A stretch of 64,000 nt of DNA, from assembly GCA_029007825.1 (NCBI GenBank), contig JAQXIO010000067.1, positions 3,147 through 67,146 on the forward strand, in the 5' to 3' direction. Both the position numbers and the translations under genes were made by a program. The stretch comes from Bacteroidales bacterium (GTDB lineage Bacteria; Bacteroidota; Bacteroidia; Bacteroidales; JAQXIO01). The notes under the pieces are model-generated. The model was given only the letters and a program-made list of their open reading frames with translations. It was not told the origin of the DNA and did not search any database. The first letter of the stretch is position 1. Each line of letters opens with the position of its first letter. Below are positions 29,201 through 51,547 of the stretch, one piece after another.

Positions 29201-32200
29201 TGGCGGTCGAATCAGGCACCGCCACATGGTCGATTGCCACTACATCTTTATCCTCATAAGAAACATAGGCGCACAGGCTCCTCGTCACCCGGTCGAACGT
29301 TACCGCCACATGCTGCCATGAAGCTTCGCCATACGCATCTTTCAACGGAACAATAGCCTTTTCCGATACGACCGTCGTTCCCCCGATACGTATCCGCAGC
29401 TTATTATCGGCCGTATAGCCGATGCCCAGTTTCTCTTTCGTCGCATAAAGCGATACGGCATCCTCGTCCCGGTCGCCGTTACGCTGCAGCCAGAACTCCG
29501 TCGTAAACGACTTCCCGTTCAGGTTCACCGGACCCGTTGTATAAGCCGTGCCCCCGTCGCCGTCGAACGACAGCCCCTCGTTATTGGCCGTACGCGCGCC
29601 GTTCGTAACCCCCTCGATCAGGAAACTTTCACTCGTAAGAGCCCCCTGATTGATCGGTTCGTTGAAATTCACCGCAATCTGCGACGACGGCAACAAAATT
29701 CCGTTCGCCGGCTCGGTACTCATTACCTGCGGGCGCTGCATATCTTTGATAATCGAAACCGGCTCGGTCGCATTCTCCCGCGCCGCACCCGTCGCAATGC
29801 ATTCGCTCACGGCACGCACCTCGTACGTGCCGTCGTTCAGGGCATTCATATCGATCGTATATTGTATATCGTTCCCCTCGATCACATATTTCGGTGTCGT
29901 CGTCTCAGATTCCCATGCAGCAGAATCAACGCAGAAAACGGCCGCCGTCACCCAGTCGCTCGTTCCGCTGCGCCGGTATTGCAAGGCAATCTTTGTAAAA
30001 TCCTTATAGCTCGTATCGAAACCGTCCACACGCACATAAAGCTGGTCGCCCGTATTATTGTTCAGCAAATCGTTGTTCTCGGGCGCCGTCATACGCAAGT
30101 CACTGCATGAAGGAGTGAAATAGACAGAGAAACGATCCACGTCGTAAACCTCGCTCGCCGACTGGAAACCGAACCACTGGCAATTCGAATGCAGTATCAA
30201 TTCTATATTTTCATAGTTAAGGCTATCCAGCCGCGACTGCACGAACTTAATCTGCTTATGAACCGTTTGTCCGGCAGGAATCGTAATATTGATGCCGCTG
30301 TTCAACGGATTCCCTTCAAGGGTAATATCCGCACCATAAGCATCGATTTTGGAGTTCGTGCACAACCCGTAGGTAATCTCCTTCCCTGCCTCCGAATTAT
30401 TGGACAACTTCACGTCGATCAGCACCTCTGTACCCGTAGGCACATCGGTCACCGTCTTATTGACAATTTCGATTTTCGGATTCTCGACCTTCTGTGTAGC
30501 CGTTTGCAACAAATGCTTGCCTGACTCGTAATACTTCGTCCGCACCTCGCCTTCATAAGGACAGGCAGTCTGTCCGCCCCGTAACACGAACACCGGCGAA
30601 GAAGCCGCCTCCTCGTAAACATCGACCGAAAGGTACGAATTCACATTCGACTCTTTCAACGTGTAAGTCGTCGTATGCGACGTTTCATCCGACCCGGAAA
30701 AAGAGGGCGTAATACCGAAAGAGAATTTCTGTCCGGGCATCGCCGTTACCCCGTTGCTGAATATATCACCGAAAAATCCGGTATACTGGTGCAGATCGAG
30801 ATGCAAGGCAACAGAGAAACCTCCACCATGGCTATCGGAGCGGGATGAAGTTTGCGTAAAAGAAGTTCCGCTATCGAACGAATAATTGTTCGTCACCTTT
30901 CCCCCTCCTATCGCTTCCACTTTTTCCCGCTCGTTTCTCGCCAAAGTCTCTTTCCACGCCGCAATCTGGTCGTTGCAGTTAAGAACAGCGTCGCCCGGCA
31001 CATAATCCGGTTGGCGTTGGGCTTCTTCCGAAGGTAAAAACATCATATAACTTTGTCCTTTCGACAAGTCGTTTTCGGGTCCCAGCGGATCATCGCCCCA
31101 CACCGGATCGTTATTACTCGTTCCATAGCCGGCATCACCCGGCCTCAAAGTCGTCAGGTAAATATTCTGGTCGGTCGTATTCACGAAATCGGACGGTATC
31201 GACTCTACCGTAGTAAGGTAACTGTTCCGCAACTCCTCCAGGTTCGGAATCACTTCGCCCTCGATTTGGGCGCCCGAATAGAGGAACGTCGTTTCGAAAT
31301 CGGTCGATACCCCGATCTCCTTATTCCTTCCGACAGTAAAAGTTTTAGCTTCCTGCTGATATTCCATATCGATATGAGCACCTTCTTCCAAACGATCTGT
31401 CTCATAGATACCGACCCAATTCATCTCACCCACCGACAAATTAGTACTCGTCCCGACAAACACATCGCCCGAAGCCCCCACATGCGAAGCATCGGTTCCC
31501 GTACTGACCGCCGATGTCGTCGTATTGCGCAACGTATAATTATAATTCCCGTTCAAAGTCAAGCCCAAATTAAATCCCAGATTCATCTTATTTCCTACCT
31601 GAGCTTTAATATTAGTCTGGACAAAAGGTGTTCCCACCGACTTATCCACATGATAACCGGTTACGACATAGGCTCCGAAACCAAACGAAGTAGAAAGCGG
31701 CATCGCGTCTATTTTCAGGTTGAAAGTCGAAGTAGAACCCTCCGACCGCGTGGCGCTGCTTGCCGACCCGGGAGGATCGCGGAGAATATCGGTAACAAGG
31801 TCGGGGCCTTTCGTTACAAAATTATTGCCCGTCGGGATACCGCCCAGCACAAAAGCCGAAAAGGTATCGTTCTCTTCCCACTCGTAAACCGTATTGGCCT
31901 TCGTCTTTACCGAAACGGACAAGCCGAGTTGGAAACTCTTATCCGGATTCGACGAATCGTAGTTGATATTCGGGAATCCTGCAATAAAACCGTAAGTACA
32001 AACCGTATCGAACGGCAGCTCCATATCTTTGCCGCTCACCGTAGAACCGTCGAGCGCCACCGAATCGAGTGCCAGAGCGTTGTTGACAAGCAACGTCGCA
32101 TCGGTAACCGGCACATAATCCTCTTCACCCGTATCGCCGTTGACATAAATCTCGTCGGCCGTTATTTCGAATTCGTAATACTGGTCTTTCAGGTAAACCG

Positions 32201-35200
32201 GAGCCCCGAAAGCATATTGCACGGCACTCTCCTCGTCGGCAAGCGAAGTAAGCGGGATCGTAATCGTATCGCCCGTAAGCACGTCGATATACTTATATTT
32301 GTCTTCACCGAACGAAGGAACCGAACCATTGTAAATCTTCGCCATTTTATCGGTCACCCGGATAGACGGGGTTTCGTAATGCACGAATTTCTGCAGCACA
32401 TTGCACGTAAACGTATCCTGCAACAGCTCCTTATGATCGCCCACCGTAACCGAGTCGCTGAAATACTGCGTCTCCATGGCCGCCATATCGGAAAGATCGA
32501 CCGTTATGACATCTTCACCGAAATACCCCTCTTCCGTGTAAGGCCGGTTTTTCAGGTAAGCCTTTACCGTATATTTCTCAGGAAGCAGCCGGGCTACATA
32601 TTCGCCCGAACCCGCTTCCGTACCGATTATATATGAATCGTTCCCTTCGGCATTGTTCTCGATCGCAAGCGACGACCGGAGCTTTTTACCGACACCGAAC
32701 GTTTCTACAGTATCCGAAGCGGTAATCCCCGGCAGCCTGTACTTCGACTTTTGCGGGGAAAGCTCGATCAGCACTTCGCCGATATTATTCCTGCTGAGCC
32801 CAAAGCCCACCTCGAGGGCGTTCTGCACGGCACCCCCTACGGCACTTCCGGCAATCACGGCGCGCGTCACGTCATAAAACATAAGCGGACTGGTCAGGTC
32901 AGACTGGAAATTATAGGTTTCATTCTTGGCCGGATAACAACCGTCGTTTTCAAACACATGCCCCTCTTTCGAAACGCTCAGCGTATGATTGCCCACAGGC
33001 ACGCTCAATTCGAAATACCCCTCGGTATCCGTCGTCACCATCGCACCGTCCGTACCGCTGATGGCCGGACTGCCGTCGATCATAACCACGGCGTTTTCCA
33101 CCGGAAACAAAGCGGTTTGTTCATCTCCGATACGTGTAGAATCGCGGTACTTCACATAACCCGTCACACGAAACGAAGAACGATCGAGAAAATCCACACC
33201 GTTTTGCACCGTCGCTCCGTTCGCCCCGATATGAATGGAAACCTCCGAAGGCGTAAACTGGTGCGTACCCATCATAGGCACTACCGAATAAGTCGTACCC
33301 TGTCCTTCGTAAGGCACACCCGAAATAACGTACGAACCGTCGGCATTGGTAATCCCTCTGAGCCAGAACTGGTTTTCGGAAGGTACCACAGGCGACGAAG
33401 CCACATTGAATAAATTACCGTTATTCTGGTTATAATTGTCGGCATTGACAAACGAAGCGTCGAAGAAATAATCCTTCAGCCCCTCGTCCAGGCGCCAGTA
33501 CGCATACAACCCAGCCTCATTACCGGCCAACGTACGGCCGTAATTATCTTTTATATGATCGGCGGTAAGCGCCTTCTTCCACAGGCGTACTTCATCCAGC
33601 AAACCGCAATAACCGCTTTCAATAGAGGGATCGGCAAGATTTCCGATCGTCGTTTTCCCCTTTGCCCCGGTGGTAAAAGACGGTGTTCCCGCAACCTGCG
33701 CCTTGCGCTCGCCGTCGATGTAAATCTCCATGCCATTCCCCACCACAATCGATACATGGCAAAAACGGGGACCCGATTGTCTGGCTCCGGGAATTTCCGC
33801 ATGCGCCATATCCAAAGGCGCCGATATAAGAGGCGACGCCATATTCTGATCCTGGCAAAGCGCGATCCGGTTGCCCGTAAGATAAATCGTAAACTCATGC
33901 TCCTGGTGGTACAACACAGCCTGCTCCTTCTCCATAGGGAGAATCCAGGCCTGCCACGTAAAGCCCTCAGAAGGCACGATAGACAAAGGCTCCTTCTTAA
34001 AGTTGACAACCGCGTATGCAGGCTTTCTCGCACCGTCCGAAGCCATCTTCGAAGTATTGAAAAAGAAGAGGCTGCGCCATCCGATGGAAAGGTCGCCCTC
34101 GTCACGCAGGTACAGCATAGCCGATGCACCCTGCACTGCATTACCGCCCGAATACGCTATTTTTCCCGTAATGGTTGCCAGAGGCTGTATAAAACCAACG
34201 ACCCCCGAACCGATTACCTTTTCGGAATAAGCCCCCTCCGCAGAAGCATCCTCCTGCGAACAATAATACTTCGCCACTACCTTATATTCATAGTACAATC
34301 CCGCCGCAGGCGTGTTGTCCGTATAATTTTCCGTCGTATTCTTTCCGTCCGAATTATACTCGTCTACCAACGCATATTCGGCCGACGAATCGCCTACCAC
34401 CCGCCGGTAAATCTGGTATTTTCCCACGAGCGAAGGAGACGTGATGCTCCACGTCAGCATTACCTTATCGGAATAAATACCCTGCGAAGCTTTTAGGGGC
34501 GATGTCACCTCGACCTCGGCCGACACGATCTGCGGATCGGTAGCCTCGCCCGTAACCACGGTTTTCTCCGGATAATTCGTAGAAAGCTTGAAATAATAGG
34601 AATAAGGTGTACAATAATCGACCCGGTCCGTATAAACCCGTTCGATATACGACTGGCAACTGCGTACCACCACGATCTCCTCGCCGCCGCCCGACCGCCA
34701 CAGGTCAAGCTGCTCCGACTCGCAATTCGGTTCGCTCCACTCGATCTTCATCTGCGCCTTATTTTCCGATGAAACAGGCGTTACCCTCAGCGAAGGCACA
34801 GTACCGTTATCTATGTTCACATTTACATTCATCGAAGAAGTATTGCAATCTCCGGAAGGAAATTCATCGGGAAACGTTCCGTGATAAATCAGGTACGTAT
34901 AATCCAGCGTACGTCCCGAAGTCCCGATCTTATGTACATAACTTTTATCCGAATAAAGCGGATTACCGGGCAGACGTACAAACTCGCCTCCGTTTTCGCT
35001 GCACCAGATAGATACCGGCGAATTTCGCGTATCGGCATTCGCCTCATTATCATATGCATCCCATTCGATCAGCATGGAACCGGAACAACGGTCGTAACCG
35101 ACATTTCGCAGATACGCCGCATCGTAACCCAGAAAATGCACCGGAGCCGTTTCGAGGTAACACCACATATTCCTGTACCCGTCGGAATTCGCATACTTAA

Positions 35201-36047
35201 AAGTTATGCTGGCATCCCATGGCCAGCTTTCGCTGAAAGCATCGAAATCATAACTGCCTTCAGATTCTAGCCCGGACATTTCCCGACTGTAGCCTATTCG
35301 GCCAAATTCACTGAAAGCGCCTATTTCCACTTTACTGGAAGAATTATTCGACCATTCGGCATTCCTCCAGCTGAAACGAAACGTATTACACGACTTCCGC
35401 TCTATTGTAATCGAAGGTGTTCTGGGTGGACTGACAGTTATCTGGTAATTCACCGTACTGTGATGGTCGCCACCTCCCTGCGAATAATTGCCGCCGCAGT
35501 CCGAATCCCTGTCCCAGAAATATTCGAGTGAAACCTCCACCCGCTGACCAATCAGATGAGACGGGCAATACCAACGGACATACGCCCAGCGGCAATCGCC
35601 CCAGTCTTCCAGGTCGCCGTAGCCAGACTCCTTCCGCAAATCCTTCTGGTGCACCAAATCCTTTATCACTTCGACATAGCCGCCGCAGTCGTCATAATCC
35701 CCGAAACCATACTCGCTGCTGCGCGACAAACGCCAGTCATTATCCCCATCGTTCCCCTTCTGGGGTTTCAGCGTCGATACGAGAATCCCGTTGACCCTCA
35801 CTTTTACATAGGCCATACGGTCTTCTACCCCGTAATTGTCATAATACAGGTAACGGAACTCCACATAAGGCTGGTCCAGAAAATCGACCGATACGTTTTT
35901 GTCCTTATGGTCGTACCCCCCCTCATGAAGGCGGATATGCCGGTCTTCGATAAAATCGACATCGGCAAACACGGAAACCGCAAAAAACAAACCGAAAAAC
36001 GATAACAATAAACGAATATCGAAAAAATGTAAAAATTTTGCCCTCAT
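26220..36047 (-). CDS. giant T9SS-secreted surface protein with three LamG/ConA-like lectin modules and carboxypeptidase-regulatory-like module
   Basis: 3275 aa. Signal peptide (..AVSVFAD). Three LamG-type endings (LDEVRLWKKALTADHI, IRDVRIWNEARMQGDI, IDEVRMWNSYREP). A CarbopepD_reg-like stretch (ITNADGSYVISGVPYEG). C-terminus ISVYPVPADYEITVNL...GVYMLVVTGDETRRVKIIKQ is typical of a T9SS CTD. The stop is 16 nt before the start of the next gene. Confidence 0.9.
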   Translation of the reverse strand: MRAKFLHFFDIRLLLSFFGLFFAVSVFADVDFIEDRHIRLHEGGYDHKDKNVSVDFLDQPYVEFRYLYYDNYGVEDRMAYVKVRVNGILVSTLKPQKGNDGDNDWRLSRSSEYGFGDYDDCGGYVEVIKDLVHQKDLRKESGYGDLEDWGDCRWAYVRWYCPSHLIGQRVEVSLEYFWDRDSDCGGNYSQGGGDHHSTVNYQITVSPPRTPSITIERKSCNTFRFSWRNAEWSNNSSSKVEIGAFSEFGRIGYSREMSGLESEGSYDFDAFSESWPWDASITFKYANSDGYRNMWCYLETAPVHFLGYDAAYLRNVGYDRCSGSMLIEWDAYDNEANADTRNSPVSIWCSENGGEFVRLPGNPLYSDKSYVHKIGTSGRTLDYTYLIYHGTFPDEFPSGDCNTSSMNVNVNIDNGTVPSLRVTPVSSENKAQMKIEWSEPNCESEQLDLWRSGGGEEIVVVRSCQSYIERVYTDRVDYCTPYSYYFKLSTNYPEKTVVTGEATDPQIVSAEVEVTSPLKASQGIYSDKVMLTWSITSPSLVGKYQIYRRVVGDSSAEYALVDEYNSDGKNTTENYTDNTPAAGLYYEYKVVAKYYCSQEDASAEGAYSEKVIGSGVVGFIQPLATITGKIAYSGGNAVQGASAMLYLRDEGDLSIGWRSLFFFNTSKMASDGARKPAYAVVNFKKEPLSIVPSEGFTWQAWILPMEKEQAVLYHQEHEFTIYLTGNRIALCQDQNMASPLISAPLDMAHAEIPGARQSGPRFCHVSIVVGNGMEIYIDGERKAQVAGTPSFTTGAKGKTTIGNLADPSIESGYCGLLDEVRLWKKALTADHIKDNYGRTLAGNEAGLYAYWRLDEGLKDYFFDASFVNADNYNQNNGNLFNVASSPVVPSENQFWLRGITNADGSYVISGVPYEGQGTTYSVVPMMGTHQFTPSEVSIHIGANGATVQNGVDFLDRSSFRVTGYVKYRDSTRIGDEQTALFPVENAVVMIDGSPAISGTDGAMVTTDTEGYFELSVPVGNHTLSVSKEGHVFENDGCYPAKNETYNFQSDLTSPLMFYDVTRAVIAGSAVGGAVQNALEVGFGLSRNNIGEVLIELSPQKSKYRLPGITASDTVETFGVGKKLRSSLAIENNAEGNDSYIIGTEAGSGEYVARLLPEKYTVKAYLKNRPYTEEGYFGEDVITVDLSDMAAMETQYFSDSVTVGDHKELLQDTFTCNVLQKFVHYETPSIRVTDKMAKIYNGSVPSFGEDKYKYIDVLTGDTITIPLTSLADEESAVQYAFGAPVYLKDQYYEFEITADEIYVNGDTGEEDYVPVTDATLLVNNALALDSVALDGSTVSGKDMELPFDTVCTYGFIAGFPNINYDSSNPDKSFQLGLSVSVKTKANTVYEWEENDTFSAFVLGGIPTGNNFVTKGPDLVTDILRDPPGSASSATRSEGSTSTFNLKIDAMPLSTSFGFGAYVVTGYHVDKSVGTPFVQTNIKAQVGNKMNLGFNLGLTLNGNYNYTLRNTTTSAVSTGTDASHVGASGDVFVGTSTNLSVGEMNWVGIYETDRLEEGAHIDMEYQQEAKTFTVGRNKEIGVSTDFETTFLYSGAQIEGEVIPNLEELRNSYLTTVESIPSDFVNTTDQNIYLTTLRPGDAGYGTSNNDPVWGDDPLGPENDLSKGQSYMMFLPSEEAQRQPDYVPGDAVLNCNDQIAAWKETLARNEREKVEAIGGGKVTNNYSFDSGTSFTQTSSRSDSHGGGFSVALHLDLHQYTGFFGDIFSNGVTAMPGQKFSFGITPSFSGSDETSHTTTYTLKESNVNSYLSVDVYEEAASSPVFVLRGGQTACPYEGEVRTKYYESGKHLLQTATQKVENPKIEIVNKTVTDVPTGTEVLIDVKLSNNSEAGKEITYGLCTNSKIDAYGADITLEGNPLNSGINITIPAGQTVHKQIKFVQSRLDSLNYENIELILHSNCQWFGFQSASEVYDVDRFSVYFTPSCSDLRMTAPENNDLLNNNTGDQLYVRVDGFDTSYKDFTKIALQYRRSGTSDWVTAAVFCVDSAAWESETTTPKYVIEGNDIQYTIDMNALNDGTYEVRAVSECIATGAARENATEPVSIIKDMQRPQVMSTEPANGILLPSSQIAVNFNEPINQGALTSESFLIEGVTNGARTANNEGLSFDGDGGTAYTTGPVNLNGKSFTTEFWLQRNGDRDEDAVSLYATKEKLGIGYTADNKLRIRIGGTTVVSEKAIVPLKDAYGEASWQHVAVTFDRVTRSLCAYVSYEDKDVVAIDHVAVPDSTASIGVLYLGANPGGAASLKGKIRDVRIWNEARMQGDIYASQSSVLSGSELGLMHYWPMNEAHGDLAEDRTSSRHMTVATDWFAGAGGKAAVIGSEGKALRYNSSVNGLVLPDENFTLEFWFKSGGQPSGTEAALFSAGKGDGTDAGNEINRRGALSVRIVYGDSVVLWSAGRKHNVAPDRYTDGSWHHFALTVNRNGYADVLLDGVQTYRVPGNEIGGIEQTYTYLGVLGYAETAGVVYSSPFTGSIDEVRMWNSYREPPLISHWMHTKMRGDEAGLTVYYPFERYVEDSFGQQTVEATAESGLLNSTVPAGPAECVDGTALVFGSDVPLLRDARPTQNIASTYVASSERVVVNINLEDKYIEKQNLTVTASGIKDLNGNDIEGAHSWNVYVLRNTLKWKSSFVETQKPVDEPLSFTASVTNLGSKSVSYSIRHLPWWLSVSEVSGDIGSVGATELTFHVDDELSIGEYEELVYLYNEDNGIAEPLRISLKVYGDAPVWAVDPSIGRDVVMTILGDLTVGGELSADTEDLIGAFSGNTCIGVASPQRVSDKLYETFVFMNVYNPQSSQPIVFKVWDASTGKIYSHVLPDDIVFNADRPLGTPGAPVHFVTGNTLQQNMALQQGWNWVSLTVDAKGANSVSALFEGHEGGISMIKSQSGGAIYQDGKWLNGALSMIPEEMYKVKSTTGTTVEIQGASLGGVRRLIHLSTSDNPAVPHGWNWIGYTPSVPLSLKEAFVNAVPQEGEMVKSQDGFAVYHSGMGWIGSLTTLRPGTGYMYKALSPRSFIYPETTLNSRSALAEAVPETSYWKPDPYAYAGTMIVIAQINNHIPGGADEIGVFAGSELRGAAVPQYVDGEGWRYLLYVYGDTPGEKLTFRYYDAARGQVFDIAESTTFVSDGLTGSLADPFVLSLKNWSGTDDAVSDGISVYPVPADYEITVNLDAPAEKAVILDASGAVVWQADRFEGGTVNIAHFASGVYMLVVTGDETRRVKIIKQ

Positions 36048-43158: not shown

Positions 43159-43531
43159 CAACATCCATTCCGGAAACCTGCAAAAACCGCCTCTGCCTTT
43201 CGTTTTCGGGAACACCCATTTCCGCTTAATCGCAAAAAATTCCGTACAAACAAAATCTTATAAATATACCCGTTCCAGGTACCAGCGCCGGAATTTAGCC
43301 CGGTATTTGGAAAAAAGATAAGACTCATCCGGAGCATAAAACAGTTGTCCACTCACCCTTCTCCGCAATCGGTACCCCATTCGCATTTTGCAAAATGGCA
43401 AGAAAAGAAAAACCAGCCACTGCGCCGGAACAGATTCGAAAAATATAGGAGAAACTCGGCAATGAAATACCTTCATTTTTCGGTGTAAGTTTATAAATCC
43501 TACTCACTATCTTTTTTATACGATAGAGATA

Positions 43532-45928
43532 CTATCGTGATCTCTCTTCTTCGTTTCCTATCTGTGCCTTTTTTACATTAACCTCTTTTCCTGCACGAAA
43601 ATTCCAACGGGCAGATATTCCAAAAGCACGTCCGGCAATCGATTGATGAGAAATTACAGTTCGGGTGCTTATCCCCGGCTGTTCCATTTCGGCTCTCATA
43701 GTCCATTTACCATTATCAAATATATTATTAACAACAGCCGATACGGTCAATCTATTTTGCAAGAAACTTTTTCGAAGACCCATATCGAACGAGTTATAAG
43801 CCTTTGTTTTCATATTTCCTTCAAGTCCTCCTGACATATAAGAAAAATTAGCTTCTAAACTCCAATTTTTCATGAAAGTAAATATATTATTAATACGGCC
43901 TTGAAATATGCTTTTATTATATTCATAATCATTTACCACGTTTCTTGCATAGGCATATGTCGCATCAACTCCTAATCGCCACCATTTAAAGGGATTAAAC
44001 GGCATATTGAGAGAAGTATAATATTGTTGGGACTTGCCGATATTTTGACTTTGATAAAGAGTAACCTCCGGATTGTCAATGTCTTGCATCATGACTTGAG
44101 CTACCATTCCTTTACCATCAAAAAATCCTAATGTCAATGAATATTTCTGTCTCAAAATACCCGTCACATTGTAATGATTATAATAAGATGGTTGAAGGTC
44201 GGGATTTCCCACTATATAACTGTAACTGCTGATTTGCTGTCGATAAGGATTAAGATTGCTAAAACTAGGACGATCGATGCCTTGACTAAAACTTGCATTG
44301 ATCATATTTCCTTTTTCTTTATTTAAAATATATTGAAGACTGATAAAACCAAAGAAATCTGTGTAATGAAGTTTTTTAACATCTTCCGGATGAGAATATG
44401 AATAAGGATTAACCAAAGTATTTTCCACTCTTAAACCAGCATTCAAATTAATCTTTCCTAAAGAAGCAGATCCATTAATGTAGGCTCCTAAAACACCTTC
44501 TTTGTATATATAATTATCGTCGAGATCAGGATCAGGAATCATATTGCCATCTTCTAATTTCGAATTGATTAATTCTGTGTTCATATTCGTATATGTATAT
44601 TTTATTCCCGTTTCCGCTCGAAATTTCGAATTAAAGATATGATTATAATCCGCCTTAATAGTATACAGATCAGTTTGTCCGTTCCAATCCATCGTATTCC
44701 CCTTTTCAATCGACTGCAACAGATCAAGTTTCTCAAATGAATAACTATCCGAATACCTATTGTTCCGATCATATAGATAATCAGCAATTACTTTTAAATT
44801 AGACCCCTTTTCATCTATGGTAATATTATAATTTAATGATGCCATATATCTATGATTTTTAATATCCGAATCATAAGTACTGGTTAAATCGGAGATCTCA
44901 TCTGAAACTTTTGTGTATCCCGAAGATGGGCTTTGAGTAGCATTATTATTAATTGAATAATCAAAATTTACGCCAATATTCTGTTTATCGGTAATTTCAT
45001 AAACGCTACCCAAACGCCCTGAATAAGATTTTACTTTTGCAGAACCCTTACTTATATTATGAATTTCTCTTTTATTTCCCGTAAGATAATGGGTTAACTC
45101 CTCCACAGTGGACTTAATCTTTTTATCGTCATAATTAAAGTTTGAATAGAAACTAAGTTTATTGATTCGATAATCAAGATTCACACTCGGACGGAGCAAG
45201 GAAGGGAAAATATTTTTTTGCATATTCATATTCATGCCAACAGAACCTGTAAGCCCGGCATTAACCGAACGTTTCAACTTGATCTTAATTACTCCGCCCA
45301 TTGCATTAGCATCATATTGTGCTCCTGCTGTCGGTATAATTTCAATTGAACTTACTTGTTCTGCATCTATGCTTTCCAAATATACCATCAATTCTTCATG
45401 AGACATTTTCAACTCCCGATCGTTTACATAAATCTGCGATACGTTATTGCCGTTAATAGAAAGTCCTTTTCCCCTTGCATACCAGACTCCCGGCGCTAAG
45501 CCCAACAGTTCTAAAGAAGTTCTGCCGATAGCAATGGGCTTTCCTGCAGTAATAAATGTATAGCTATCAGCGGTACGTCGGATCATATCGGCTGTTATCA
45601 TGACATCATTGAGTTGGTTTACAGATTCTTTTAAAATCAAATCACCGATATTTATTTTTCCTTCTACTTTGATTGGCTTTATTAGTGTCTCGTAACCTAA
45701 AAATGCAACCCGTAAAATATAATTATTTTTAGCAATATTTGCTATCTCGAATTTTCCGTCATTATCAGCAACAGTTCCTGAAACTGTAAGGGAATCAGTA
45801 TCTAACAGACTAACTGTAGCAAATGCTAAAGGATTATTCTGTTGATCTTTTATAGTTCCGTTAATGGATTCTCCTAAAACAGGGAAAGATAAGTAAACTA
45901 AAACGAAAATTAATGTGTGTTTTTTCAT
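43532..45928 (-). CDS. outer-membrane beta-barrel protein with CarboxypepD_reg-like and plug domains (TonB-dependent-receptor-like)
   Basis: 798 aa. Signal peptide. INGTIKDQQNNPLAFATVSLLD...DGKFEI (CarbopepD_reg). Plug-like segment (LELLGLAPGV...GGVIKIKLKR). Alternating beta-strand pattern to the C-terminus. Starts 11 nt after the upstream gene. Confidence 0.85.
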   Translation of the reverse strand: MKKHTLIFVLVYLSFPVLGESINGTIKDQQNNPLAFATVSLLDTDSLTVSGTVADNDGKFEIANIAKNNYILRVAFLGYETLIKPIKVEGKINIGDLILKESVNQLNDVMITADMIRRTADSYTFITAGKPIAIGRTSLELLGLAPGVWYARGKGLSINGNNVSQIYVNDRELKMSHEELMVYLESIDAEQVSSIEIIPTAGAQYDANAMGGVIKIKLKRSVNAGLTGSVGMNMNMQKNIFPSLLRPSVNLDYRINKLSFYSNFNYDDKKIKSTVEELTHYLTGNKREIHNISKGSAKVKSYSGRLGSVYEITDKQNIGVNFDYSINNNATQSPSSGYTKVSDEISDLTSTYDSDIKNHRYMASLNYNITIDEKGSNLKVIADYLYDRNNRYSDSYSFEKLDLLQSIEKGNTMDWNGQTDLYTIKADYNHIFNSKFRAETGIKYTYTNMNTELINSKLEDGNMIPDPDLDDNYIYKEGVLGAYINGSASLGKINLNAGLRVENTLVNPYSYSHPEDVKKLHYTDFFGFISLQYILNKEKGNMINASFSQGIDRPSFSNLNPYRQQISSYSYIVGNPDLQPSYYNHYNVTGILRQKYSLTLGFFDGKGMVAQVMMQDIDNPEVTLYQSQNIGKSQQYYTSLNMPFNPFKWWRLGVDATYAYARNVVNDYEYNKSIFQGRINNIFTFMKNWSLEANFSYMSGGLEGNMKTKAYNSFDMGLRKSFLQNRLTVSAVVNNIFDNGKWTMRAEMEQPGISTRTVISHQSIAGRAFGISARWNFRAGKEVNVKKAQIGNEEERSR

Positions 45929-45939
45929 ATCTTAAAAAA

Positions 45940-48111
45940 TCAATATGGAGTAAAAACGAAAAGATTTGACATATACCATCCAATATATTTAGAAATATAA
46001 TTTTGCACCCCAAAATCTTGAATCTTTAATTCATCTTTATATTGCATTAGCATCTTTTGTTTATCATCCTGTAAAGATTTCAATTGACTTTGTCCGCTTA
46101 AAACCAAATATCTGGTCGCATATAGCTCATAATTTAATTTATTATTCTTGTCAAACTCCACCAATGCCAAATTAAGCCATGCTTTAGGCAAATTTGGCAT
46201 CATCTCTAAGGCTTTGGAAATAAATTTTTCTGCTTCTGATTTTCTATCTAGTAAATATAGGCTCTTCCCGATATTCGAAATGATTATTGGATTTTGTTCA
46301 CGCTCGGCACTATTTATCAAGGACTCAATAAGAATGTCTTTTACATAAGGATCTGCATTATCAATTTCCTTCCAATAACAAGAGTTCAGTACAGACGGAT
46401 TATATTTTACCGCTTTAATTAAATAATCAGTCCATTTATTATTATTTTTATTTAAATATAAAATACGTGACAATGATAAATTATATAGAGCATTTTCTGG
46501 AAATTCTTCTACTAAAGTTTTTAGTCTATTTATAGCAACAATAGTATTTCCTCTCTCATAAATCATATAAGCAATATTGTGGTCAAGCAAAGGACTCCTA
46601 TAATAATTGGTTACGCATCGAAAATATTTAATCGCAATATTTAAATTTACAGTATCGTTCATTTCGTAATACTGTTTCCAATACATATATCCCTTGTTTA
46701 TAAAAGTTGGCATAAAATCGTCACAGTCTTTCAATATTTTTAGCGCACTATCAATATTGCCCCCTTCGGCCAATTTTACAGCTTTATCATTAAGTTTATT
46801 AGAGTTGCTTAAAGAAAGAGAAATCGATAAGATGCCTAGGCAAATAATAAAAGGTATAATTGAAATCCATTTAGTTATGTCTTTATTTATTATAAATGTA
46901 TTCTTTGCGTCAATATTCTGAACTGCCGCTAATAGTGTAAACATAACTAATTTCAGAGACATAGAATTCAACAATACCGGAAAAGACAACTCTCTAATCA
47001 AAATTGTTACGGATATAATTAGAAACAGAGGGAAAATAAGATTTAAATGGATCCGTTTAAGCAGATAAACAAAAATTACAATTAAGAATAATAACCATAG
47101 ACTAAATCCAATTATCCCTTTCTCTATCAATAATTGAGATATTATATGGGGAGCGAATGTTGTGAAACTTGTTTTATCAGATTCGTATCTCTTTGTATTT
47201 ATTATTTGAGAAAATGTACCTGAACCAGCCCCGAAGAATAAATTTTCATTTATTTTTTTGAAAGATGCTTTAGATGACAGAACCCTCCCCTCTATACTTT
47301 TTTGTTGGGAGATAGTTTCTGTAAAATTTAAAGTTTGAAAAACTTCCGAAACAAATGGCCTTATTATTAGCAATAGACATATGGCTACACAACAAGATAA
47401 ACATAGTTTAGTAATCAATTTTGTTTTGCTAAATACAAGAAGCAAAAATAAAGATATCAAAAGAAAAATAAACGCAACATAAATCCCTCTTGAAAAGGAT
47501 GTTATTATTCCATATGTTACAGGAATCAAGCAGAAAATAAGTATTATTCTCAATCTTAAAAGTTTTCTACAATATAAAATTGAAAATAGTATTAATCCTG
47601 CAAATCCTAAAAGATACGAACTCCATATATTTATAGATTGGCCTAATGGTTTATATAAATACCTAAATGGATATAGACTGTCAAATTGGGCAATATTATA
47701 AATTAAATCCTCAAAATAGAAAAATGCGACACAACCTAATAATGCTGCGACTCCTATTATTAAACCATAAGAAAATAACAAATATTCAAATTCAACTTTT
47801 TTGTTAAAACATAATCTCAATACCAAATAATATAGCGTGCAAATAACGCTTATTTTTAAGTGTATGAAATTTGTAATGAAATTTACCGATATAAATTGCA
47901 GTATTATTTCGTATAATAATAAAATTACAATTAGCGTATCAATACAAGTAAGACGTAAAACAGCCGATTTTAACTTAATAAATATTACAAAGGATAATAT
48001 AATTCCGATTGAGAAAAACGGATCATTAATCTTTGAAGTTAATGATAATATAAATAAAATTGCTAATAAAAATAGGCTTACTATCAATTGAGGCTTTATA
48101 GATGAAGTCAT
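45940..48111 (-). CDS. polytopic membrane protein with O-antigen-ligase-like (Wzy_C) core and C-terminal TPR repeats
   Basis: 723 aa. About 10-12 TM segments. Wzy_C-type motifs (SFSRGIYVAF ... R..S.K..F.KI....FFGAGSGTF ... FAPHIISQLLIEKGIIGF). The C-terminal ~300 aa have TPR-like repeats (AEKFISKALEMMPNLPKAWLNLALV). Starts 3 nt after the M50 gene. Confidence 0.8.
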   Translation of the reverse strand: MTSSIKPQLIVSLFLLAILFILSLTSKINDPFFSIGIILSFVIFIKLKSAVLRLTCIDTLIVILLLYEIILQFISVNFITNFIHLKISVICTLYYLVLRLCFNKKVEFEYLLFSYGLIIGVAALLGCVAFFYFEDLIYNIAQFDSLYPFRYLYKPLGQSINIWSSYLLGFAGLILFSILYCRKLLRLRIILIFCLIPVTYGIITSFSRGIYVAFIFLLISLFLLLVFSKTKLITKLCLSCCVAICLLLIIRPFVSEVFQTLNFTETISQQKSIEGRVLSSKASFKKINENLFFGAGSGTFSQIINTKRYESDKTSFTTFAPHIISQLLIEKGIIGFSLWLLFLIVIFVYLLKRIHLNLIFPLFLIISVTILIRELSFPVLLNSMSLKLVMFTLLAAVQNIDAKNTFIINKDITKWISIIPFIICLGILSISLSLSNSNKLNDKAVKLAEGGNIDSALKILKDCDDFMPTFINKGYMYWKQYYEMNDTVNLNIAIKYFRCVTNYYRSPLLDHNIAYMIYERGNTIVAINRLKTLVEEFPENALYNLSLSRILYLNKNNNKWTDYLIKAVKYNPSVLNSCYWKEIDNADPYVKDILIESLINSAEREQNPIIISNIGKSLYLLDRKSEAEKFISKALEMMPNLPKAWLNLALVEFDKNNKLNYELYATRYLVLSGQSQLKSLQDDKQKMLMQYKDELKIQDFGVQNYISKYIGWYMSNLFVFTPY

Positions 48112-48114
48112 ATA

Positions 48115-49335
48115 TTAAAGCGTTTTAGCTGCATCATTTATCTTTAGCAAGTGTTTTTTTACAAGCGGATATAAGGTTTTATATAAAACATATACAGTAA
48201 ACATGAAAAAAATAAGTTGCCCGAAACACCTCTGCATCAACTGTAAATCAGGCATGGATCCAGTAGAAATCATAAATATCAATTCCTTTATATGCCCCGG
48301 AAAGGTCCTGAAGAATTTTATTATAAACACAGGTATGAAATATAAAAAATAAAAACCGAAAATCAAGTTAACTAGTATTGTATATATAATTGCAACCGTT
48401 CTTTGCTTTTTTGAAATAGCTAAAAGGTAGGGTCGCTTATTAATAGGCTTTTTAAAAGATCGATTAAAATAATACTTAAATACTTCAGAAGTTCTTTGCC
48501 TTAAGTTGGGAATACCCAATAAATCTGACATAATCCAATAACCATCAAATTTTAAAAATGGATTAAGAGTAATCGCCATATTAATATTTACCGACAGGAT
48601 ATAATACTTTAATATATTATTTCCGGTTTCAGCATATATCAAAAACATGGGAATCAGTAATATTAGTTGAAAATATATTCCCGCTATATTTACCACCATT
48701 TTTTGTAGTTTTGGTAACTGCCATACTTCAGAAACATCGGTGTAAAAAACAGGAAAATTTATATAAAGCCCAAATCCAATTCCTCCGTGATTAACTCCAA
48801 AATATCTGCATGCGGAGGCATGCCCTAACTCATGAAAAAATGAAGATAATATAAACAATCCCAATAATCCGATAATCATATAAAGATCTATCTGGTTAGT
48901 ATTGAATATTGTTAAATTATTCGTAAAAAACAGTATCTCTAAAACCACTATCGCTACCATAATAAGTAACGATATCCATTTATTAAATAATACCTTAAGA
49001 ATATTGGATAATGTACCTATTGTTTTTTCAGAAAGCAGCTCTATATTAAAAATAAATGGAGAAGATTTTTCCTTAGAAGCAGGCTTCAATATTTTACCCA
49101 AACAATTTTCTATTATAGATTCAATTTCTTCATCATTAAATATCCGCCCTTTTTTTGCATAAAACTCTTTCAACCCGTCTATAGATGATTTTTCTTTCAA
49201 AAGATCTATTAACTCAAAGACTGTTTCGTTAATTTCAAAATTTCTTTCTTTATAACATACTATATAGCGCTGATCGACATTCGATGTTGCCAGCTTTCGT
49301 ATTTCAAGCTCATGAATCAATTTGAGATCTACCAT
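48115..49335 (-). CDS. M50-family (site-2-protease-like) intramembrane zinc metalloprotease with PqqD/RRE-like N-terminal domain
   Basis: 406 aa. HExxH in a TM helix (FFHELGHA). Second M50 signature NxxPxxxxDG (NPFLKFDGYW). N-terminal ~85 soluble aa (YIVCYKERNFEINETVFELIDLLKEKSSIDGLKEFYAKKGRIFNDEEIESIIENCLGKIL) have the layout of PqqD-type peptide-binding domains. Confidence 0.85.
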   Translation of the reverse strand: MVDLKLIHELEIRKLATSNVDQRYIVCYKERNFEINETVFELIDLLKEKSSIDGLKEFYAKKGRIFNDEEIESIIENCLGKILKPASKEKSSPFIFNIELLSEKTIGTLSNILKVLFNKWISLLIMVAIVVLEILFFTNNLTIFNTNQIDLYMIIGLLGLFILSSFFHELGHASACRYFGVNHGGIGFGLYINFPVFYTDVSEVWQLPKLQKMVVNIAGIYFQLILLIPMFLIYAETGNNILKYYILSVNINMAITLNPFLKFDGYWIMSDLLGIPNLRQRTSEVFKYYFNRSFKKPINKRPYLLAISKKQRTVAIIYTILVNLIFGFYFLYFIPVFIIKFFRTFPGHIKELIFMISTGSMPDLQLMQRCFGQLIFFMFTVYVLYKTLYPLVKKHLLKINDAAKTL

Positions 49336-49353
49336 AATTTAGAACAATTGAGA

Positions 49354-49376
49354 GGGGGTATAAATTATATACCCCC
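49354..49376 (-). terminator. intra-operon GC-clamped stem-loop just after precursor gene (possible partial terminator or mRNA-stabilising/processing hairpin)
   Basis: gggggtata (49354-49362) pairs with tataccccc (49368-49376), 5-nt loop, 18 nt downstream of the precursor stop on the minus strand. Only a weak U-tract follows. Confidence 0.5.
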
Positions 49377-49394
49377 AAAAGTTTAGCCTACAAG

Positions 49395-49583
49395 TTATGA
49401 TACCGGAGAACAAACGTTTTGTTCTGAGCTACACTGAACGGCGCAAAAACAAGCGGCACCGTCAATCCCATCTACAGGGCCAAACAGATCCAACAAGCCT
49501 CCCACCGTAAGAATGTCTGTTTCAAGACGTTTCTCAAGTTCCTGAACAAAAAAATCATCATACAACTGCTCATTAAGAGGCAT
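49395..49583 (-). CDS. candidate RiPP precursor peptide (acidic helical leader, GG motif, Cys-rich C-terminal core)
   Basis: 62 aa: MPLNEQLYDDFFVQELEKRLETDILTVGGLLDLFGPVDGIDGAACFCAVQCSSEQNVCSPVS. Cys at 45, 47, 51 and 58. Lies 65 nt after the rSAM/SPASM gene and 59 nt before the M50 gene, on the same strand. Confidence 0.75.
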   Translation of the reverse strand: MPLNEQLYDDFFVQELEKRLETDILTVGGLLDLFGPVDGIDGAACFCAVQCSSEQNVCSPVS

Positions 49584-49648
49584 TAATTCCTCTTTTTTTC
49601 ATTTTTTTTCATAGTGAAAATTTAAAATTAAATTAATAAAAACACAGG

Positions 49649-51052
49649 TTACTGCATAGCCGGCATAACACACTCCTCGTACGCTTTATTAGCAGCATAT
49701 TTAAAGGTATTAGAATAGCCATCACAATAATTGCTGTTTATATCTTTATTTCTTGTAATAGAAAGGTGTAGGCATCCTCCACTACATAGCAGAGCGTATT
49801 TGCACACGGAACAATTTTCTGATCCATTTATATTTCTGGCATGCCATCTACTAAGCTCTGGTGTCCACTGTATTTTATCGGAGTATTTGCCTATTACATT
49901 TTGAGGGTTTCCCACAAGGCTCCAACAGCCATAAATATTTCCATACGGATCAAAAATATAAGAACCGCTTTGGGCTGCACAAAATGTTGAATTTAAATAT
50001 ATCTTCCTTTTTTCTTTAATCGCTTTTGATAATTTATTATATATTCCAAAATCCTGACACCCGTACTTATTACCATTAAATTCTAATTGCTTGTAATTTA
50101 TTCTATTAAATTCTTCTCTATTTAAATAGTTTAAAACAGCGCTTTTATTATTAGCATCGGGAGAATAATCCTTTAACAAGGCCGACTTAAATGCGAATTT
50201 TTCAAATTTACTATATCCAAGTTCGTCGAAATAATTTAAAATTTTTTTAATGTCACTGATGTTATTTTTATCAGTATTGTAACGTATCGCAACAGCTATA
50301 TCTTTTTTTAATGCAATTCCTATATTTTTCACTATCTTATCAAACGATCTTCCCGTTAAATAATGAATACGCCTATTATCATGTTCTTCCTTAAACCCAT
50401 CAATGGTTATCTGCAAAGTATTAATCTTTTCAGGAGAAAGCAGATCTTCATAGTGATCTAAATCATAGCCATTGGTTATAGCCATAAAAGTCATTCCAAA
50501 TTTTTGTGCCCTTGATACTATATATTCTACTATTTCTTTATTTTCTTTAAGTAAAGGCTCTCCCCCATATAAAATACTTTGCCGGCTTCTTAATTCTGCC
50601 CGAGGTTCTATTTGTTCCATTGCATAGAATGCTTTATCAACCAGCTCTTTAGTAAATTTTCTCTTTGTCCATTGATGTCCCTCCCCTGATATCTCGTTTT
50701 CATAACAATATGGGCATCTAAAATTACAATCATAGGAAATTAAAAACATGAAATTTTTAAAAAGGCTTTTATCTTTACGATGCATCAGATTTGCAAGCTT
50801 TTTTACATATTCTCTCTCTTCCCGCAATGTCTTTGTTGTAATATATCCTCTACTAATTAATAATTTCAAAGTATCATCATTTAGGCCATCTGATTGTAAA
50901 TTTATGAAGCTTCCATTTTCCTTTAAATACTTCACTATTTGTTTACTTGCAACATCTATAGCTCCTGTGTAGCCATGAATTAGCATGTATTTTTCCGATG
51001 CTTTTTCTAATTTAATGAAAATAGTATACGAAGATAAACGATAATTAATCAT
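49649..51052 (-). CDS. radical SAM / SPASM-domain peptide maturase
   Basis: 467 aa. CNFRCPYC (Cx3Cx2C at C109/C113/C116) after a ~100-aa N-terminal extension. GGEPLL. Full SPASM Cys pattern: CAAQSGSYIFDPYGNIYGC (with Gx4C), CSVCKYALLCSGGC (Cx2Cx5Cx3C) and a final NYCDGY. Confidence 0.92.
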   Translation of the reverse strand: MINYRLSSYTIFIKLEKASEKYMLIHGYTGAIDVASKQIVKYLKENGSFINLQSDGLNDDTLKLLISRGYITTKTLREEREYVKKLANLMHRKDKSLFKNFMFLISYDCNFRCPYCYENEISGEGHQWTKRKFTKELVDKAFYAMEQIEPRAELRSRQSILYGGEPLLKENKEIVEYIVSRAQKFGMTFMAITNGYDLDHYEDLLSPEKINTLQITIDGFKEEHDNRRIHYLTGRSFDKIVKNIGIALKKDIAVAIRYNTDKNNISDIKKILNYFDELGYSKFEKFAFKSALLKDYSPDANNKSAVLNYLNREEFNRINYKQLEFNGNKYGCQDFGIYNKLSKAIKEKRKIYLNSTFCAAQSGSYIFDPYGNIYGCWSLVGNPQNVIGKYSDKIQWTPELSRWHARNINGSENCSVCKYALLCSGGCLHLSITRNKDINSNYCDGYSNTFKYAANKAYEECVMPAMQ

Positions 51053-51547
51053 AATGCATTAGATTGTTAATTATTTATAATTATAGATAGAAATAATATT
51101 ATTTTACTATAAATATAATATTATCCCCAAAACAAGCAGATTATTATCTAATAATTAGGATTTCCTAAATAAGAAGAAGTCCTGATTTTTCCATAAAATA
51201 AAAATTTAAGGTGTGGCTTATATAGTAACTCAATTACAAATCTATAATTAAACTTTCATTATTTGAAATAGTCAATGCTATAAAATACGTTAATTATATA
51301 AAATTATACTTTTATTATGATATTCATAAATACCGATAGGTATCCGTTCGCTCCGATTATAAATTTCTCCATATATTTTTTTTAACCTAATACTCTATTA
51401 AAATTTTGGATTCCGATAAAATGGAATAACTTTTTCAATTCGAGATTTTAAAAGACGAAGCCTGAATATTACCATAGTCCTACCAACCACAAAACAACAG
51501 AAAAGTAATAGATCGCACTTTTAAACTTTCTCATTATTTTCATACGG

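Follow-up and report, generated by a model that had tools for sequence, protein, structure and literature searches.

A histidine-less WaaL-fold protein fused to a TPR domain and tied to peptide cassettes in Bacteroidales

Introduction

O-antigen ligases such as WaaL, protein O-oligosaccharyltransferases (O-OTases) of the PglL/PglS/TfpO type and Wzy polymerases are the closest described counterparts of the protein considered here. It is encoded on the minus strand at positions 45940..48111 of a 64,000-nt stretch of a Bacteroidales contig (JAQXIO010000067.1; "the window" denotes this whole stretch), has 723 amino acids (aa) and joins a membrane domain of the Wzy_C family to a tetratricopeptide repeat (TPR) domain; we refer to it as the Wzy_C-TPR protein. 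With WaaL of Cupriavidus metallidurans (7TPG/7TPJ) it shares a fold of 12 transmembrane (TM) helices, the Wzy_C match, two arginines and the G-x-G loop. Unlike WaaL, it has Pro321 where the ligase carries the His of its H-A-H-N motif, possesses an extra helix (TM13) and a 287-aa TPR domain, and is encoded in a peptide cassette instead of a lipopolysaccharide (LPS) locus; its neighbors are a radical SAM enzyme, a precursor peptide, an M50-like protease and an outer-membrane barrel, not LPS core or O-antigen genes.

The O-OTases are Wzy_C enzymes as well. In PglS, 13 TM helices are combined with a C-terminal domain in the periplasm (PMC12800693), and the substrate genes of TfpO, TfpM and PglS adjoin the enzyme gene (PMC12645811). 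PglL_A and Wzy_C_2 accompany Wzy_C in enzymes of the PglL/PglS type (PMC12645811). R224, R298 and H349 of NmPglL and R215, R288 and H338 of Escherichia coli WaaL are described as essential or functionally important (PMC3643930); the two arginines have been assigned to diphosphate coordination, and the substitution H324A inactivates PglS (PMC12800693). The window protein differs from these enzymes in having Pro in place of H349, in being without PglL_A and Wzy_C_2, in the TPR nature of its C-terminal domain and in its presumed substrate, which is a small radical SAM-modified peptide instead of a folded protein. Wzy polymerases and other His-less Wzy_C proteins resemble it in family membership and in the absence of the ligase His, but they are found among sugar genes and have no TPR domain, whereas the window protein has a T..T-x-S-Q-Q-x-S..R motif of its own.

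The neighboring protease scores best against models of leader proteases of ribosomally synthesized and post-translationally modified peptides (RiPPs), yet it stays far under their cut-offs (98.5 bits vs. 300 for daptide_HExxH and 60.9 bits vs. 225 for YydH/LiaK), and we know of no Wzy_C protein in the YydH/LiaK or daptide systems. A periplasmic TPR domain encoded beside an outer-membrane barrel recalls the AlgK/AlgE, BcsC and PgaA conduits, TPR proteins being described as assisting transfer over the periplasm (PMC9601211), and the secreting TonB-dependent barrel Oar (PMC6434023). The cargo in those systems is a polysaccharide or a protease, whereas here it would be a small peptide, and the TPR domain is fused to a WaaL-fold domain, so that the likeness may be taken as an analogy only. 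A full-text search, with subscription journals and closed supplements outside its reach, found no paper linking radical SAM/SPASM peptide maturation with O-antigen ligase proteins.

Results

A WaaL-fold membrane domain joined to a TPR domain

The initial annotation described the gene at 45940..48111 as an O-antigen-ligase-like (Wzy_C) protein with TPR repeats, translationally coupled to an M50 protease gene and embedded in a peptide-maturation operon. These descriptive claims were borne out. The open reading frame (ORF) comprises 723 codons on the minus strand, with its stop codon at 45940-45942, and the plus-strand reading is broken by stops. It is not a chance reading, because 723 codons remain open in DNA of 25-30% GC, full-length homologues were found at E values down to 4e-90, and an exhaustive profile search gave 446 representative clusters at E<=1e-30. 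The motifs SFSRGIYVAF, FFGAGSGTF and FAPHIISQLLIEKGIIGF, which the initial annotation had quoted, are all present in the translation. Counting its stop codon, the protease ORF extends to 48115, and the start codon (ATG) of the Wzy_C-TPR gene lies at 48111-48109, so that the gap of 3 nt and the tight coupling hold. The operon reads, in minus-strand order, radical SAM/SPASM enzyme, Cys-rich precursor, M50-like protease, Wzy_C-TPR protein and TonB-type barrel.

The Wzy_C call rests on a Pfam match (PF04932) of residues 195-340 (47092..47529) with an E value of 4.2e-13 and 49.8 bits against a gathering cut-off of 31.7. The TPR domain (residues 437-723, about 287 aa; 45943..46803) was recognized with a family profile and an AlphaFold2 (AF2) model; TPR matches from the single sequence fall under the Pfam cut-offs. 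A profile of ten family members matched solved TPR proteins at E values of 9e-19 to 1e-11, and the full-length AF2 model, built from a 31-sequence alignment (predicted local distance difference test score, pLDDT, 88; predicted template-modeling score, pTM, 0.88), shows approximately 17 paired helices over residues 437-713.

Because Foldseek returned only TPR proteins for the full-length model (probability 1.00 to the CTPR and OGT TPR domains), the membrane domain (residues 1-436, 13 TM helices; 46804..48111) was folded alone (pLDDT 85.6). Its model superposed on WaaL chain 7tpj_B in VIA-align with a Z score of 21.2 and a root mean square deviation of 4.8 over 347 aligned residues (model 5-403 on chain 5-407), and the next matches, FtsW (Z 12.8) and RodA (Z 11.4), were far lower. 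The top Foldseek match was WaaL again (7tpg_B, E 2.3e-4, TM score 0.47/0.50). Since TM1-12 superpose on the twelve helices of WaaL, the helix at residues 419-436 (46804-46857) is the thirteenth.

This helix count bears on the topology. With the helix limits of the model, Lys and Arg in the short loops number 12 in 49 residues on the inner side and 3 in 51 residues on the outer side. Conservation, the alignments to WaaL and 9rmk_A and the loop charges place the large loop (residues 253-322; 47146..47355) on the outside and, with an odd thirteenth helix following, the TPR domain would be outside too. The number of helices, the homology to WaaL and the positive-inside rule thus agree in predicting that both the large loop and the TPR domain are periplasmic, and not that the TPR domain is cytoplasmic, which the initial annotation had named as a refuting outcome. 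The model thereby has the 13-TM layout with a periplasmic C-terminal domain known from the PglL/PglS type, the domain being TPR and not Wzy_C_2.

Proteins combining Wzy_C and TPR are common in Bacteroidota, Acidobacteriota and Chloroflexota, and the corresponding Protein Atlas clusters are labeled generically "O-antigen ligase/TPR". An apparent rarity of the family was dismissed: the first search had returned 11 relatives owing to a word-index limit. No NCBIfam model recognizes the Wzy_C-TPR protein, the precursors or the transglutaminase-like lipoprotein described below.

Constant pairing with the protease

A genome search with the Wzy_C-TPR family gave 25 loci, 19 of Bacteroidales type and six from Saprospiraceae. 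The Bacteroidales-type loci came from Dysgonomonas, Bacteroides, Parabacteroides, Phocaeicola, Prevotella, Rikenella, Tannerella forsythia ATCC 43037 and one bin labeled Veillonella. In 17 of these 19 loci the Wzy_C-TPR gene is immediately preceded by the M50 gene; a radical SAM gene was found in 14, the barrel in 12 and a transglutaminase-like/F5_F8 lipoprotein in 11. The two loci without the M50 gene are L015, where an orphan copy stands next to a transposase-like gene, and L018, where the copy is split. Wherever both genes are whole, the window included, they overlap or lie within 17 nt of each other (16/16 loci; spacing from simple ATG-first ORF calls).

An independent metagenome scan, seeded with the protease only, yielded 80 loci. 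The Wzy_C-TPR gene follows the protease in 76 of them, and the four misses have just 150-312 bp of downstream sequence. Among loci with at least 350 bp downstream, the gene is thus retained in 76/76, at a distance of no more than 700 bp in 75 of them. Conservation in homologous operons, which the initial annotation had singled out as a check, is therefore complete in this sample, and a chance neighborhood was rejected because of this synteny. In the 28 metagenome loci with approximately 6 kb on both sides, the trio of protease (28), Wzy_C-TPR protein (28) and barrel (27) is nearly constant; the lipoprotein is present in 25 and a detectable precursor in 22, and the radical SAM enzyme is missing from a part of them (present in 24/28).

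Within the order, a close protease orthologue (E<=1e-87) occurs in 3 of 401 sampled genomes, the window's genome included. In both other genomes, which are complete, a Wzy_C-TPR gene adjoins the protease but is interrupted (G251:C1:341531-343512 and G303:C1:2960606-2962651), one copy being divided into two parts, with a TAA, and the other having one in-frame TGA. Three weaker M50 relatives among the 401 genomes (28-30% identity) have no adjacent Wzy_C-TPR gene, and a search of 40 further genomes sampled from the order gave no Wzy_C-TPR protein at E<=1e-20. With so few carriers among the sampled genomes, the cassette is patchy. It recurs in gut Bacteroidales, and its culturable carriers include Tannerella forsythia, Phocaeicola sartorii DSM 21941, Bacteroides acidifaciens DSM 15896 and Phocaeicola coprophilus DSM 18228.

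Residues at the place of the WaaL active site

Conservation was analyzed in two sets. Set 1 contained 79 distinct members, obtained by merging identical sequences among 31 alignment rows and 57 ORFs from the 76 metagenome loci that are complete and have at least 600 aa (19 truncated ORFs were left out). Set 2 contained 147 of the 150 representatives listed by the exhaustive search, without rows P0002, P0003 and P0005. Profile alignment to WaaL gave E values of 8.6e-7 and 6.8e-7; the match to the 610-residue oligosaccharyltransferase chain 9rmk_A was weak (E 1.3e-6 with alignment A1 and 0.13 with alignment A5).

In these alignments, R208 falls on R191 of WaaL (7TPG) and R224 of 9rmk_A, and R276 on R265 of WaaL and R298 of 9rmk_A. 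Position 208 is Arg in 79/79 members of set 1 and 144/147 of set 2, and position 276 in 78/79 and 147/147, respectively. The P-x-x-G-x-G loop of the family is aligned with P313, G316 and G318 of 9rmk_A, and a Q-L-L-x-E-x-G segment after the His site is common to both. The large loop carries the hallmark T260..T266-x-S-Q-Q-x-S272..R276, followed by G294-x-G296 and by P321-H322 at the canonical His-Asn place. In the column after the His site, set 1 has Asn in 71 members, Ser in seven and His in one, this lone His being H322 of the window protein.

Thirteen residues are invariant throughout set 1 (79/79), namely R99, N161, W163, F206, R208, T260, Q269, S272, G294, G296, E330, G332 and G335; S272 is also found in 147/147 members of set 2. 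Position 374 is always Glu or Asp (79/79). It lies 53 residues past the His column, compared with 55 in PglL (E404; PglS E379), and the profile alignment to 9rmk_A stops before it. The alignment of Q178/N180 of PglL to N161/W163 of the family is ambiguous and is not claimed. By the helix limits of the model, nearly all invariant residues, including N161, W163, Q269, S272, E330 and Glu/Asp374, are located at predicted periplasmic helix ends or in the large loop. Conservation in the TPR domain is found mainly at Ala, Pro, Leu, Gly, Trp and Tyr positions. Conserved polar residues in the membrane domain, next to mainly structural conservation in the TPR domain, are easier to reconcile with ligand binding or catalysis than with a passive scaffold. 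The protein thus appears to keep the diphosphate-binding half of the WaaL/PglL site, together with a polar cluster of its own, without the base.

Wzy_C paralogues that stand beside glycosyltransferase genes in the same genome are also without the ligase His. The missing residue therefore sets the protein apart from known kinds of ligase and O-OTase, and does not mark it as dead. A second Wzy_C+TPR paralogue of the same genome (L028, contig C74:1-1666), cut at the contig end, has no His before the conserved Asn either; the gene that follows it looks by eye like a membrane-fusion (efflux adaptor) lipoprotein.

The peptide cassette and its variants

All five genes of the window's cassette are transcribed from the minus strand and lie in a low-GC island (~43500..51500), which stands out in the composition profile with 23-37% GC vs. 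38-55% in the flanks. The radical SAM/SPASM peptide maturase (467 aa; 49649..51052) was identified by Pfam Radical_SAM (E 4.9e-18) and the NCBIfam SPASM domain (53.2 bits vs. a cut-off of 27); the closest NCBIfam family models (CefB, TIGR04463 and PapB) all scored far under their cut-offs. The HExxH/M50-like intramembrane metalloprotease (406 aa; 48115..49335) was assigned from Pfam, NCBIfam and alignment. It has HELGH at residue 168, and its Pfam Peptidase_M50 match (E 0.002) is under the cut-off. A Pfam search at E<=10 for a domain of the RiPP recognition element type in the N-terminal 110 residues of the M50 protein and the N-terminal 100 residues of the radical SAM protein returned nothing meaningful. 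The barrel (798 aa; 43532..45928) combines CarboxypepD_reg, Plug (25.7 bits vs. a cut-off of 23.9) and OMP_b-brl_3 (E 1.3e-87), and its gene starts 11 nt beyond the Wzy_C-TPR stop.

A scan for sigma-70 promoters remained at background (52 found vs. 48.7 expected), with a consensus that does not cover Bacteroidetes promoters. The stretch is present in four DNA sequencing runs of one pig-gut study, and no RNA run is among the runs listed. Upstream of the region studied, one ORF of 3275 aa occupies 26220-36047 on the minus strand.

The precursor (62 aa; 49395..49583) has an ELExRLETD leader and a core with four Cys, and it was recognized from its ORF and from 48 distinct homologous precursors. 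Their common leader reads S-L-N... and then E-L-E-x-R-L-E-T-D-P-L; after it come an acidic spacer, rich in Ser and Gly, and a core that is hypervariable and contains 2-10 Cys. With a mean net charge of -4.5 the cores are acidic, Cys, Gly, Ser and Asp are abundant in them, and several are His-rich as well; together with a TonB-type barrel, such acidic Cys/His-rich cores could point to metal binding. The N-terminus of the window's precursor is the shortest of the 48 compared and begins exactly at the conserved L-N motif. Directly before it, at 49583-49612 on the minus strand, lies a mini-ORF of nine codons (M-K-K-N-E-K-K-R-N-stop) whose terminal TAATG overlaps the precursor ATG; the residues that it encodes are similar to N-termini of homologous precursors, which are rich in Lys, e.g. 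that of L001. The mini-ORF may stem from a frameshift within an A-run, or it may be an upstream ORF that is coupled.

Cassette composition varies around the protease and the Wzy_C-TPR protein. Four loci (L003, L019, L054 and L079) have these two and the barrel without a radical SAM match in the ~6-8 kb covered upstream; L054 retains a precursor with the same leader. In L001, L002 and L006 the barrel is missing, and its place is taken by ABC parts of the MacB/FtsX type, an outer-membrane efflux protein or both. This replacement suggests that the barrel serves outer-membrane passage as an alternative to the MacB/efflux set. PF14905 barrels have already been noted in Bacteroidetes RiPP loci (PMC8939145).

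The six Saprospiraceae loci (L020-L025), all from metagenome-assembled genomes, have the Wzy_C-TPR protein without the protease or the radical SAM enzyme. Their module, set between housekeeping flanks, combines the Wzy_C-TPR protein with a C39-peptidase ABC exporter, a GG-leader peptide of 70 aa and a small membrane protein; a transglutaminase-like/F5_F8 lipoprotein is present in 5/6. As the C39-peptidase ABC exporter covers both cleavage and inner-membrane export there, the role of the Wzy_C-TPR protein is not solely translocation or leader cleavage, and its conserved task should lie after export, in the periplasm.

The transglutaminase-like lipoprotein, which has a discoidin-type C-terminal domain, accompanies the Wzy_C-TPR protein in both lineages and is missing from the window's island. 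The genome holds a paralogue of it with 29% identity on another contig (C21:2661-4580), located by a signal peptidase, a DUF1573 protein and a glutaminase. In L004, L007, L012, L014 and L017, small DUF3244 proteins and a ~640-aa TPR/helix-turn-helix-like protein are often found upstream of the radical SAM gene; both are likewise missing from the window's island.

Discussion

Judged by its sequence, the Wzy_C-TPR protein is not a canonical ligase or O-OTase; it represents a His-less, TPR-fused clade of the WaaL fold that is tied to peptide cassettes, and its task may be a previously undescribed step by which the peptide is matured or exported. We tentatively favor the possibility that it belongs to the WaaL/PglL (Wzy_C) superfamily as a dedicated, non-canonical member, namely a periplasm-facing, polyprenyl-diphosphate-dependent tailoring enzyme for the peptide of its cassette. 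Tailoring is ranked first because the polar pocket is invariant over about 150 representatives, the layout is PglS-like, O-OTase genes as a rule adjoin those of their substrates, and the Saprospiraceae variant retains the protein.

In such a pathway, the radical SAM/SPASM enzyme would cross-link the Cys-rich core in the cytoplasm, and the HExxH/M50-like protease would cut off the ELExRLETDPL-type leader at the membrane. The TPR arm would catch the leader-less peptide in the periplasm and offer it to the WaaL-like pocket, where the two conserved arginines would hold a polyprenyl-diphosphate-linked donor, and a group would be moved to the peptide without the ligase His. Most simply, this group would be a glycan from the host pool. 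The TonB-type barrel, or the MacB/TolC set in some cassettes, would then move the peptide over the outer membrane.

The initial annotation had proposed that the processed peptide is glycosylated or ligated to a lipid or glycan carrier in the periplasm. The domain, the gene context, the translational coupling and the predicted periplasmic side of loop and TPR domain agree with this idea; its canonical form is weakened by several observations, which also weigh against tailoring as such. Pro321 occupies the place of the second His of the WaaL H-A-H-N motif and of H349 of 9rmk_A, and His is not among the commonest residues of this column, neither among the top five in set 1 (Pro 58, Ala 7, Asn 6, Ser 5, Met 1) nor among the top six in set 2 (Pro 88, Ser 16, Asn 15, Thr 11, Gly 6, Met 4). 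PglL_A (PF15864) and Wzy_C_2 (PF11846) were not reported in the protein by Pfam at E<=0.01, and domain scans found no glycosyltransferase, flippase or sugar-nucleotide genes in the cassette. The hypervariable cores of the 48 precursors share no conserved Ser/Thr position, and the window's precursor has no Ser or Thr at all in the spacer before its first Cys. The O-glycosylation sequon of Bacteroidetes, D-(S/T)-(A/I/L/V/M/T) (PMC8729774), occurs in its core form in 1/48 post-leader parts vs. 6.6 ± 2.4 in shuffled sequences (11/2000 shuffles as low), and the extended motif in 5/48 vs. 13.6 ± 3.0 (3/2000 as low); as the precursors are related, the shuffle figures are not probabilities. This depletion argues against use of the general sequon. 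It also fits passage through the periplasm, a similar avoidance having been reported for secreted cargo of the type IX secretion system (PMC8729774). Finally, most Bacteroidales cassettes are without an obvious inner-membrane exporter, which favors a transport role for the pair of protease and Wzy_C-TPR protein.

Several of these points would suit a non-catalytic partner, a scaffold role also raised in the initial annotation. Its WaaL-like domain would form an inner-membrane complex with the HExxH protease and let the cleaved peptide out on the periplasmic side, and its TPR domain would hand the peptide to the outer-membrane exporter, much as TPR proteins of synthase-dependent systems do with polysaccharides; we regard this as possible but doubtful. 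The catalytic His is missing, the two genes are paired throughout (76/76) and overlap or nearly touch in all 16 whole loci, and MacB-type parts are restricted to L001, L002 and L006 of the 19 Bacteroidales-type loci, most of which have no ABC or other inner-membrane exporter. Precedents exist on the outer-membrane side: conduits of TPR domain and beta-barrel are established for polysaccharide export (PMC9601211), and a CarboxypepD_reg-type TonB-dependent barrel is able to secrete a protein (PMC6434023). A predicted complex of the Wzy_C TM domain with the M50 protein scored 0.21 and 0.14 against a mark of 0.32, with controls absent, and was counted neither way. A passive escort is, however, hard to square with 13 residues, most of them polar, that are invariant where WaaL has its active site, and with the diphosphate-binding arginines. 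Saprospiraceae retain the family although their C39-peptidase ABC exporter already cleaves and exports, and the TPR domain is retained in the barrel-less L001, L002 and L006. To our knowledge, no WaaL-fold protein translocates peptides, which also counts against an escort.

Self-protection of the producer, another role suggested initially, is improbable in our judgment. Here the protein would bind or alter a surface glycolipid or an envelope intermediate linked to polyprenyl diphosphate, or its TPR domain would sequester the peptide. Such a role would explain why the protein is a constant member of two bacteriocin-like kinds of cassette, the radical SAM type and the GG-leader/C39-peptidase ABC type, and why the diphosphate-binding arginines are kept and the transfer-base His is not; many cassettes, moreover, have no other candidate immunity gene. 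The cores are diverse, however, with 2-10 Cys and no shared sequence, whereas the pocket is invariant, so that a single mechanism would need a common target, and strict translational coupling to the leader protease instead of the precursor suits maturation better. Least of all do we expect an ordinary O-antigen ligase or polymerase of surface polysaccharide synthesis that merely neighbors the peptide operon. The Pfam family name, the wide occurrence of Wzy_C+TPR proteins and the Wzy_C paralogues beside glycosyltransferase genes in the same genome would suggest it, but the protein pairs with the protease in 76/76 loci over many lineages, and its gene sits inside a low-GC island, spaced 3 nt and 11 nt from its neighbors, in a cassette without sugar genes. 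The weight beyond these four readings goes to something else.

A general protein O-oligosaccharyltransferase of Bacteroidetes was still unidentified in 2022 (PMC8729774), and none is named in the later papers checked. Going further, the His-less WaaL-fold/TPR protein and the HExxH protease might together constitute a new inner-membrane machine for ribosomal peptides in Bacteroidota that cuts the leader and delivers the peptide to the periplasmic face, a proposal that we consider rather unlikely as it stands. If true, the machine would possibly work via a polyprenyl-phosphate-linked intermediate or adduct, and it would replace the peptidase-ABC exporters that are usual elsewhere and give RiPP maturation an additional step that depends on a lipid carrier. 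Membrane proteins of the WaaL/PglL fold are not known from RiPP pathways, and here one is the obligate partner of a leader protease. Its role, once known, would amount to either a new periplasmic peptide-tailoring reaction or a way for peptides to exit without an ABC exporter, and it would assign a function to one clade of the large Wzy_C+TPR group.

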